Origin: a virus
Lineage: Duplodnaviria > Heunggongvirae > Uroviricota > Caudoviricetes
IMG/VR virus record: IMGVR_UViG_2541047502_000012
Reading direction: 5' to 3' (one strand)
DNA length: 4,291 nt
This document shows positions 3,731 through 4,291 of the stretch, piece by piece; the first letter of the stretch is position 1, and each line of letters starts with the position of its first letter. The position numbers and the translations under genes were made by a program. Under the pieces are notes generated by a model. It did not search any database. It was given only the letters and a program-made list of their open reading frames with translations, and was not told the origin of the DNA.

Positions 3731-4048
3731 ATGTCATCAATCCGCTTAACTACGAGAATGAAAGAGGAAATCGCTCGTAACGCTTTAATTAAGTCCGGGG
3801 TGTTCACTGAACTTGAAGAAGTAACAAAGTTAAAGAACCAGCTTGCACTTGACGCCAGAGTTATTGCGTTTGGCGGTAAAAAGAAAACTGAGGAAGTGGA
3901 TCAGTTATCATCCAAGTTGGTAGCTATAAGTGAAGAACTTGGAAAGATGGGATGTTCATTTTACTCATACGATGTTAGTTCTACTTCAATTTATCTGACT
4001 GAACCGCCCCGGAAATCCTGGAGACTAAACTCCCTGAGAAAGAGGTAA
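3731..4048 (+). CDS. Hypothetical protein downstream of N, 3' end truncated and replaced by IS-derived sequence
   Basis: ATG at 3731 with GAGAGGAA Shine-Dalgarno upstream. Native coding sequence runs to about codon 90 (about 3999); the last ~15 codons ([16 protein letters not shown]) are read from the IS left end, which begins TGAACCGCCCC at 4000. The ORF-track start at 3671 overlaps N and is rejected. Confidence 0.55.
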
Positions 4049-4291
4049 ACAGGATGACTAAAAATACTCGTTTTTCCCCCGAAGTCCGTCAGCGGGCGAT
4101 TCGTATGGTTCTGGAAAGTCAGGATGAATATGACTCACAGTGGGCGGCAATTTGTTCCATTGCCCCAAAGATTGGCTGTACGCCGGAGACTCTGCGTGTC
4201 TGGGTTCGCCAGCATGAGCGGGATACCGGGGGCGGTGATGGTGGGCTCACCAGCGCTGAACGTCAGCGTCTGAAAGAGCTGGAACGTGAAA
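4000..4291 (+). mobile_element. IS3-family insertion sequence (IS629/IS1203-like), left end; element continues past window end
   Basis: Terminal sequence TGAACCGCCCCGG... at 4000 is typical of IS3-family ends, followed 54 nt later by the OrfA start. The OrfA N-terminus matches IS629-type OrfA as recalled. Confidence 0.8.
4054..4291 (+). CDS. IS3-family transposase OrfA (IS629-like), 5' portion, 3' end outside window
   Basis: Translation from ATG 4054: [79 protein letters not shown]. This has the HTH and leucine-zipper-type N-terminal region of IS3-family OrfA. Shine-Dalgarno AGAGG upstream. Confidence 0.85.

Follow-up and report, generated by a model that had tools for sequence, protein, structure and literature searches.

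Insertion sequences of the IS3 family carry orfA, which encodes a helix-turn-helix protein, followed by orfB for a DDE transposase, which is reached through a programmed -1 frameshift. Upon insertion, these elements duplicate 3 bp, and occasionally 4 bp, of the target site. Insertions of IS629 have been reported to be the main source of variation within types of Stx phages (PMC4587872). Stx2a prophages of Escherichia coli O121:H19 (e.g. RM8352; LC616031-LC616058) contain an IS1203-like element after codon 36 of an Nmad5-family gene in the pL operon, flanked by a GAA duplication (L006:5636-6946). The insertion is present in every listed O121:H19 record, comprising about 30 phage records and several complete genomes. 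In the one O121 genome examined, cIII, kil, and the recombination genes are annotated as intact downstream of the element. Proteins belonging to the same Pfam family as the product of the interrupted gene have been described from Dhillonvirus phages, where the deletion of nmad5 gave viable phage, indicating that the gene is dispensable, the K296E change in the protein led to escape from the Tmn defence, and cloning of the gene seemed toxic (PMC11846954). Dispensability, Tmn escape, and toxicity are known from these larger homologues, not from the 207-residue lambdoid form.

The window analysed here is the whole 4291-bp contig AVRQ01000103.1 of the draft E. coli assembly GCA_000462225.2, the plus strand of which corresponds to the 'leftward' direction of a lambdoid immunity region (Table 1). 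We propose that the target of a transposing IS1203 copy was codon 90/91 of an Nmad5-family gene of 207 codons, which directly follows N in the early-left (pL) operon, and that the host was a lambdoid prophage of the Stx1-phage type with its own set of cI, cro, and operators and with N and nutL of the P22 type. This explanation, including the consequences of transcriptional read-through discussed below, is very probably correct. The interrupted gene, its position in the operon, and the family of the element are the same as in the O121:H19 prophages; however, the insertion in the window is at codon 90 instead of 36, the element has the opposite orientation, and the insertion was found in a single strain. 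As in other STEC strains and Stx prophages, IS1203/IS629 has inserted into a prophage gene, whereas the site of insertion in the window is private and only the left end of the element is visible. The case is covered by prior knowledge: it is an ordinary, strain-private instance of a well-documented kind of insertion.

The left end of the contig is located 41 nt into a lambda-type replication gene O on the minus strand (positions 1-41, MTNTAKILNFGRG...), and the right end (4291) lies inside IS1203, 292 nt past the start of the element. Both ends are assembly breaks at sequences that are present in multiple copies in STEC genomes and do not represent biological boundaries. The multicopy nature of the IS, at which short-read assembly breaks, explains why the contig stops 292 nt into the element. 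Since the contig ends inside the IS, only the left junction of the element can be observed.

Table 1 Features of the window, with positions counted from its first nucleotide.
Feature	Position	Strand	Evidence or remark
cII	74-370	-	
cro	477-701	-	
Three oR operator palindromes, ATAAC-N4-GTTAT type	738-800		
cI	813-1520		
Three-gene cassette at the lambda rexAB position, between cI and pL	1558-2969	+	
Strong terminator-like hairpin closing the cassette	2946-2969		
oL operator repeats, ATAAC-N4-GTTAT type	3137-3150, 3162-3175	+	Overlap candidate pL
Candidate pL promoter, TTGACC-17-TATCTT	3150-3178	+	Promoter scan
nutL-like site, boxA-like GCTCTTTAAC	3225-3234	+	Read from sequence
nutL-like site, boxB hairpin GCGCTGACAAAGCGC	3244-3258	+	Predicted 5-bp stem, 5-nt loop
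N antiterminator gene, 113 aa, arginine-rich motif GNAKTRRHERRRKLAIER	3378-3719	+	PF25694 N_peptide, E 8e-26
5' fragment of Nmad5-family gene, codons 1-90 of 207	3731-4000	+	PF18757, 77.3 bits; 90 identical residues
Chimeric ORF: 90 native codons, 15 IS-encoded codons, TAA (WP_024166751.1, 105 aa)	3731-4048	+	Protein comparison
Presumed copy of target-site duplication, GAC	3997-3999	.	Presumed only; a 3-bp GAA duplication flanks the same element in O121
Left 292 nt of IS1203/IS629, including IRL TGAACCGCCCCGGAAATCCTGGAG	4000-4291	+	292/292 identity to L003:2503-2794
IS orfA, first 79 codons, HTH_Tnp_1, cut by contig end	4054-4291	+ (same direction as pL)	PF01527, E 7e-9; gene call

The left end of the IS, TGAACCGCCCC, begins at position 4000, and its inverted repeat, TGAACCGCCCCGG..., starts with the 5'-TG that, together with CA-3' at the far end, is typical of the IS3 family. 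The 292 nucleotides up to the contig end are identical to the start of a complete 1310-bp copy of IS1203 (L003:2503-3812), and RefSeq gives the copies matched at 100% identity in many genomes the annotation 'IS3-like element IS1203 family transposase'. The complete copy is bounded by the terminal repeats TGAACCGCCCCGGAAATCCTGGAG... and ...CTCCAGGAAACCCGGGGCGGTTCA, in which 13 of the 13 terminal bases and 22 of the first 25 match each other. The window holds the N-terminal part of orfA, and the identical IS1203 copies elsewhere also contain orfB and the frameshift region. The original prediction of an IS3-family, IS629-like left end at this position is thus borne out, and judged by its sequence the element is IS1203, the E. 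coli form of IS629. The dinucleotide TG at 4000-4001 is common to the intact gene and the IS, which leaves a 2-nt ambiguity in the boundary. The junction might be an assembly chimera or a minority variant, given that it comes from a short contig of a draft assembly and occurs in one assembly only. However, the break falls precisely on the TG that terminates the inverted repeat, which a random chimera would not produce, and graph assemblers require reads that span a junction. An artefact is therefore extremely improbable, and the junction is not a product of chance because the break falls at the terminal base of a known mobile element.

Upstream of the IS, positions 1-4001 of the window align without gaps and with one mismatch (99.975% identity) to a prophage of E. 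coli 2014C-3061 (L001:2802-6802), and the homology to the host sequence ends exactly at the IS terminus (4001). Positions 1-3999 are approximately 100% identical to the Stx1-converting phages Stx1_JNE110649 and SH2026Stx1. The comparison with uninterrupted homologous prophages, which had been suggested as a means of recovering the intact gene, yielded an allele of 624 bp encoding 207 amino acids (L001:6532-7155), which does not end where the ORF of the window does. Relative to this intact protein, the predicted interruption after about codon 90, followed by a foreign tail of 15 codons and a stop codon, was confirmed. The truncated gene, to which the original prediction gave no identity, now belongs to the Nmad5 family with a putative function: the intact allele matches PF18757 from end to end (240.2 bits, E 3e-71), the score of the fragment in the window also exceeds the curated cut-off of 27 bits, and IS-free relatives carry the annotation 'Nmad5 family putative nucleotide modification protein'. 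The gene also matches phrog_1965 (function unknown). In an alignment of 36 members of the Nmad5 family, most of the invariant columns are at residues 153-203, and the corresponding block V153...WPES..EL...LPAL..LN..IGLP203 is present in the 2014C-3061 allele and missing from that of the window. Because the truncation after residue 90 removes the most conserved C-terminal half, the allele is almost certainly null; the copy in the window is a pseudogene of the family.

Of the 5426 complete E. coli genomes, 211 contain the gene, as do several lambdoid phages such as mEp235; Klebsiella, Enterobacter, Providencia, and Serratia have relatives with 40-60% identity. The name of the Nmad5 family is based on gene-neighbourhood inference. 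No modification genes were found beside the Nmad5-family gene in the intact relative. The fold predicted for the lambdoid protein (L001:6532-7155, model m01891d9495af) is composed of helical hairpins and a small beta-meander, and its comparison with solved enzymes detected no similarity to any of them. Going by this model and the gene order, the name 'nucleotide modification' is without structural or neighbourhood support in the lambdoid context. The Dhillonvirus Nmad5 differs from the lambdoid form in its length of about 300 residues and in the position of its gene near the capsid genes, and it matches only the C-terminal part of the lambdoid protein, with 32-41% identity over residues ~103-203.

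The placement of the insertion within the pL operon, in the gene immediately following N, holds, as the window contains an N homologue, a nutL-like site with boxA and boxB, a candidate pL promoter, and operator repeats. In addition to its match to the Pfam family, the N protein is similar to the lambda N chain 6gov_N (E 4.7e-6), and the RefSeq annotation agrees. The operator pattern has five matches in the window, compared to 0.11 expected by chance, and the putative functions of the operators and pL are assigned from their positions and the lambdoid architecture. The boxB hairpin does not reach a significant z-score, which its short length would lead one to expect, and an Rfam scan of the window gave no matches. 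In the intact relative, the Nmad5-family gene is followed downstream by cIII, kil, gam, bet, and exo. The arginine-rich motif of N, GNAKTRRHERRRKLAIER, and the boxB sequence, GCGCTGACAAAGCGC, are presumably those of phage P22. N and nutL of this type occur here in a phage that, apart from them, has the immunity region of Stx1 phages.

In a repressed lysogen, the insertion would be silent because pL is presumably repressed. After induction, N-modified polymerase starting from pL would read through the 1.3-kb element, so that the expression of cIII, kil, gam/bet/exo, and xis/int would be at most mildly reduced and the co-oriented transposase genes would be transcribed from pL as a by-product. 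Read-through mediated by N is established for lambda and is applied here to this phage and this IS by analogy. Because the IS and pL share their orientation and only a few nucleotides separate the end of the truncated ORF from orfA, the transcript would be translated at least through orfA. On the strand of the IS that is sense with respect to pL, a scan identified no convincing strong intrinsic terminator. The insertion could instead, along the lines of the original prediction, exert strong polarity on cIII and kil, on the recombination genes, and on int/xis, resulting in altered induction or a defective prophage. The IS adds 1.3 kb to the transcript, the orfB region is translated only after frameshifting, which leaves room for the loading of Rho, and there is one weak terminator-like site on the sense strand, although its occurrence is within chance expectation. 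Nevertheless, the insertion lies downstream of nutL and N, and in classical work on lambda (Adhya, Gottesman and de Crombrugghe 1974; Franklin 1974), N-modified polymerase is reported to override terminators of both the Rho-dependent and the intrinsic kind and to relieve IS polarity. Strong polarity of a simple insertion, or a prophage made defective by it, is unsupported and distinctly unlikely because N-modified transcription reads through terminators. Furthermore, the stop of the truncated ORF is positioned 5 nt before the ATG of orfA, so that translation continues into the IS, and the records of O121 Stx2a prophages retain an IS in the same gene. In lambda, lytic growth does not require the genes located between N and int, which also counts against a defect.

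The stop codon TAA of the chimeric ORF (4046-4048) sits within or just after the ribosome-binding region of orfA (window positions 4046-4056). We speculate that read-through from pL on induction could couple translation into the transposase gene.

Whether the operon continues on the right side of the IS is a larger uncertainty than polarity. The event was likely a simple transposition with a 3-bp duplication, the alternative being an IS-associated rearrangement. A simple insertion predicts that the right end of the IS is followed by GAC and TGTATCTGGCAG..., the beginning of the rest of the Nmad5-family gene. The right junction would thus read ...GGGGCGGTTCA-GAC-TGTATCTGGCAGAAGG... and run on into cIII and kil, and with the GAC duplication, CCCGGGGCGGTTCA followed by GACTGTATCTGGCAGAAGG is expected elsewhere in the genome of the strain. 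We constructed the expected sequences of the IS right end, duplication, and gene for duplications of 2-5 bp, and looked up five predicted ORFs as exact sequences. The junction-specific ORFs of 144, 138, and 119 amino acids were absent from the protein collection, which is a weak test. An 87-residue fragment with an internal start is on record, but it originates from 70 contigs, including those of O121, and is uninformative about the right junction. A 117-residue protein (P0013), which is 100% identical and has the length of the missing C-terminal part (207-90=117), was ruled out as the missing fragment; it represents an internal stretch without interruption, located on a 351-bp contig from a different assembly.

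The IS might mark a deletion, an inversion, or a recombination between IS copies, so that the DNA on its right would not be the remainder of the Nmad5-family gene, the pL-distal genes would be lost or separated, and the prophage would be truly defective. An event of this kind is found in E. coli O103 ML775, where the right end of IS1203 abuts codon 107 of the same gene (L009:2193-3502), with unrelated DNA on the left and no target duplication; it is an IS-associated deletion or rearrangement in which the upstream side was lost or rearranged. As the ML775 case shows, the operon need not continue beyond the right end of the IS in our strain. Contiguity on the right is hidden, since the contig terminates within the IS, and the fusion ORFs predicted for a simple insertion were not found in the exact look-up, although contigs that end in a multicopy IS are normal for short-read assemblies and say nothing about rearrangement. 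The best-documented insertion in the gene, that of O121, is simple and has a 3-bp duplication. We therefore consider a rearrangement unlikely and retain simple transposition as the preferred explanation.

The junction of the window is rare. The same junction was not found in the 5426 complete E. coli genomes, searched with queries of 1092 and 91 nt, or in 50,697 phage records, and the present contig is the only recorded source of the exact chimeric protein WP_024166751.1. The gene itself has been hit repeatedly. In addition to the insertions in the window, in O121:H19, and in ML775, the draft contig JBIMKF010000059.1 begins in an end of IS5, an element different from that of the window, joined at TTAG of codon 82 (L007:1-130). 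The events at codons 82 and 107 are, like that in the window, independent IS hits in the same 624-bp gene. There are at least four independent IS events in this gene, caused by two IS families, and a frameshifted allele (P0067) also exists. The Nmad5-family gene after N might thus be a preferred casualty, the loss of which is possibly selected for in lysogens, but we regard this as very doubtful. Selection could result from toxic leaky expression, comparable to the toxicity reported when the Dhillonvirus nmad5 was cloned, or from sensing of the protein by a host defence such as Tmn.

In a different lambdoid prophage, that of E. coli FDAARGOS_1300, an IS3-family element oriented in the direction of pL is positioned directly after a different post-N gene and is followed by IS4 (L008:3686-5400). 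IS elements seem to accumulate in the accessory region near N.

The insertion matters little beyond strain typing. Insertion sites of IS629/IS1203 discriminate STEC lineages, and the private insertion in a prophage of the Stx1 type provides one more marker. A contig that ends in an IS cannot tell whether the prophage is intact. The insertion removes an accessory early gene, and the comparison of the strain with IS-free relatives such as SH2026Stx1 offers a natural knockout for studying the role of the lambdoid Nmad5.

The cassette between cI and pL consists of a DUF3024 gene, an ORF of 177 amino acids (phrog_2602, unknown), and an ORF of 44 amino acids (phrog_21154, unknown). Lambda genes at the rexAB position are expressed in the lysogen, and the cassette genes are candidates for functions in lysogenic conversion or exclusion. 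The sole mismatch to the 2014C-3061 prophage over 4001 nt is a G to A change at position 1817, which converts TGG to TAG (codon 1816-1818) and shortens the DUF3024 gene (1558-1818, plus strand) from 113 to 86 codons. The alignment score suggests that the records of Stx1 phages also lack this change. After the IS insertion, this mutation is the second private change that inactivates a gene of the prophage.
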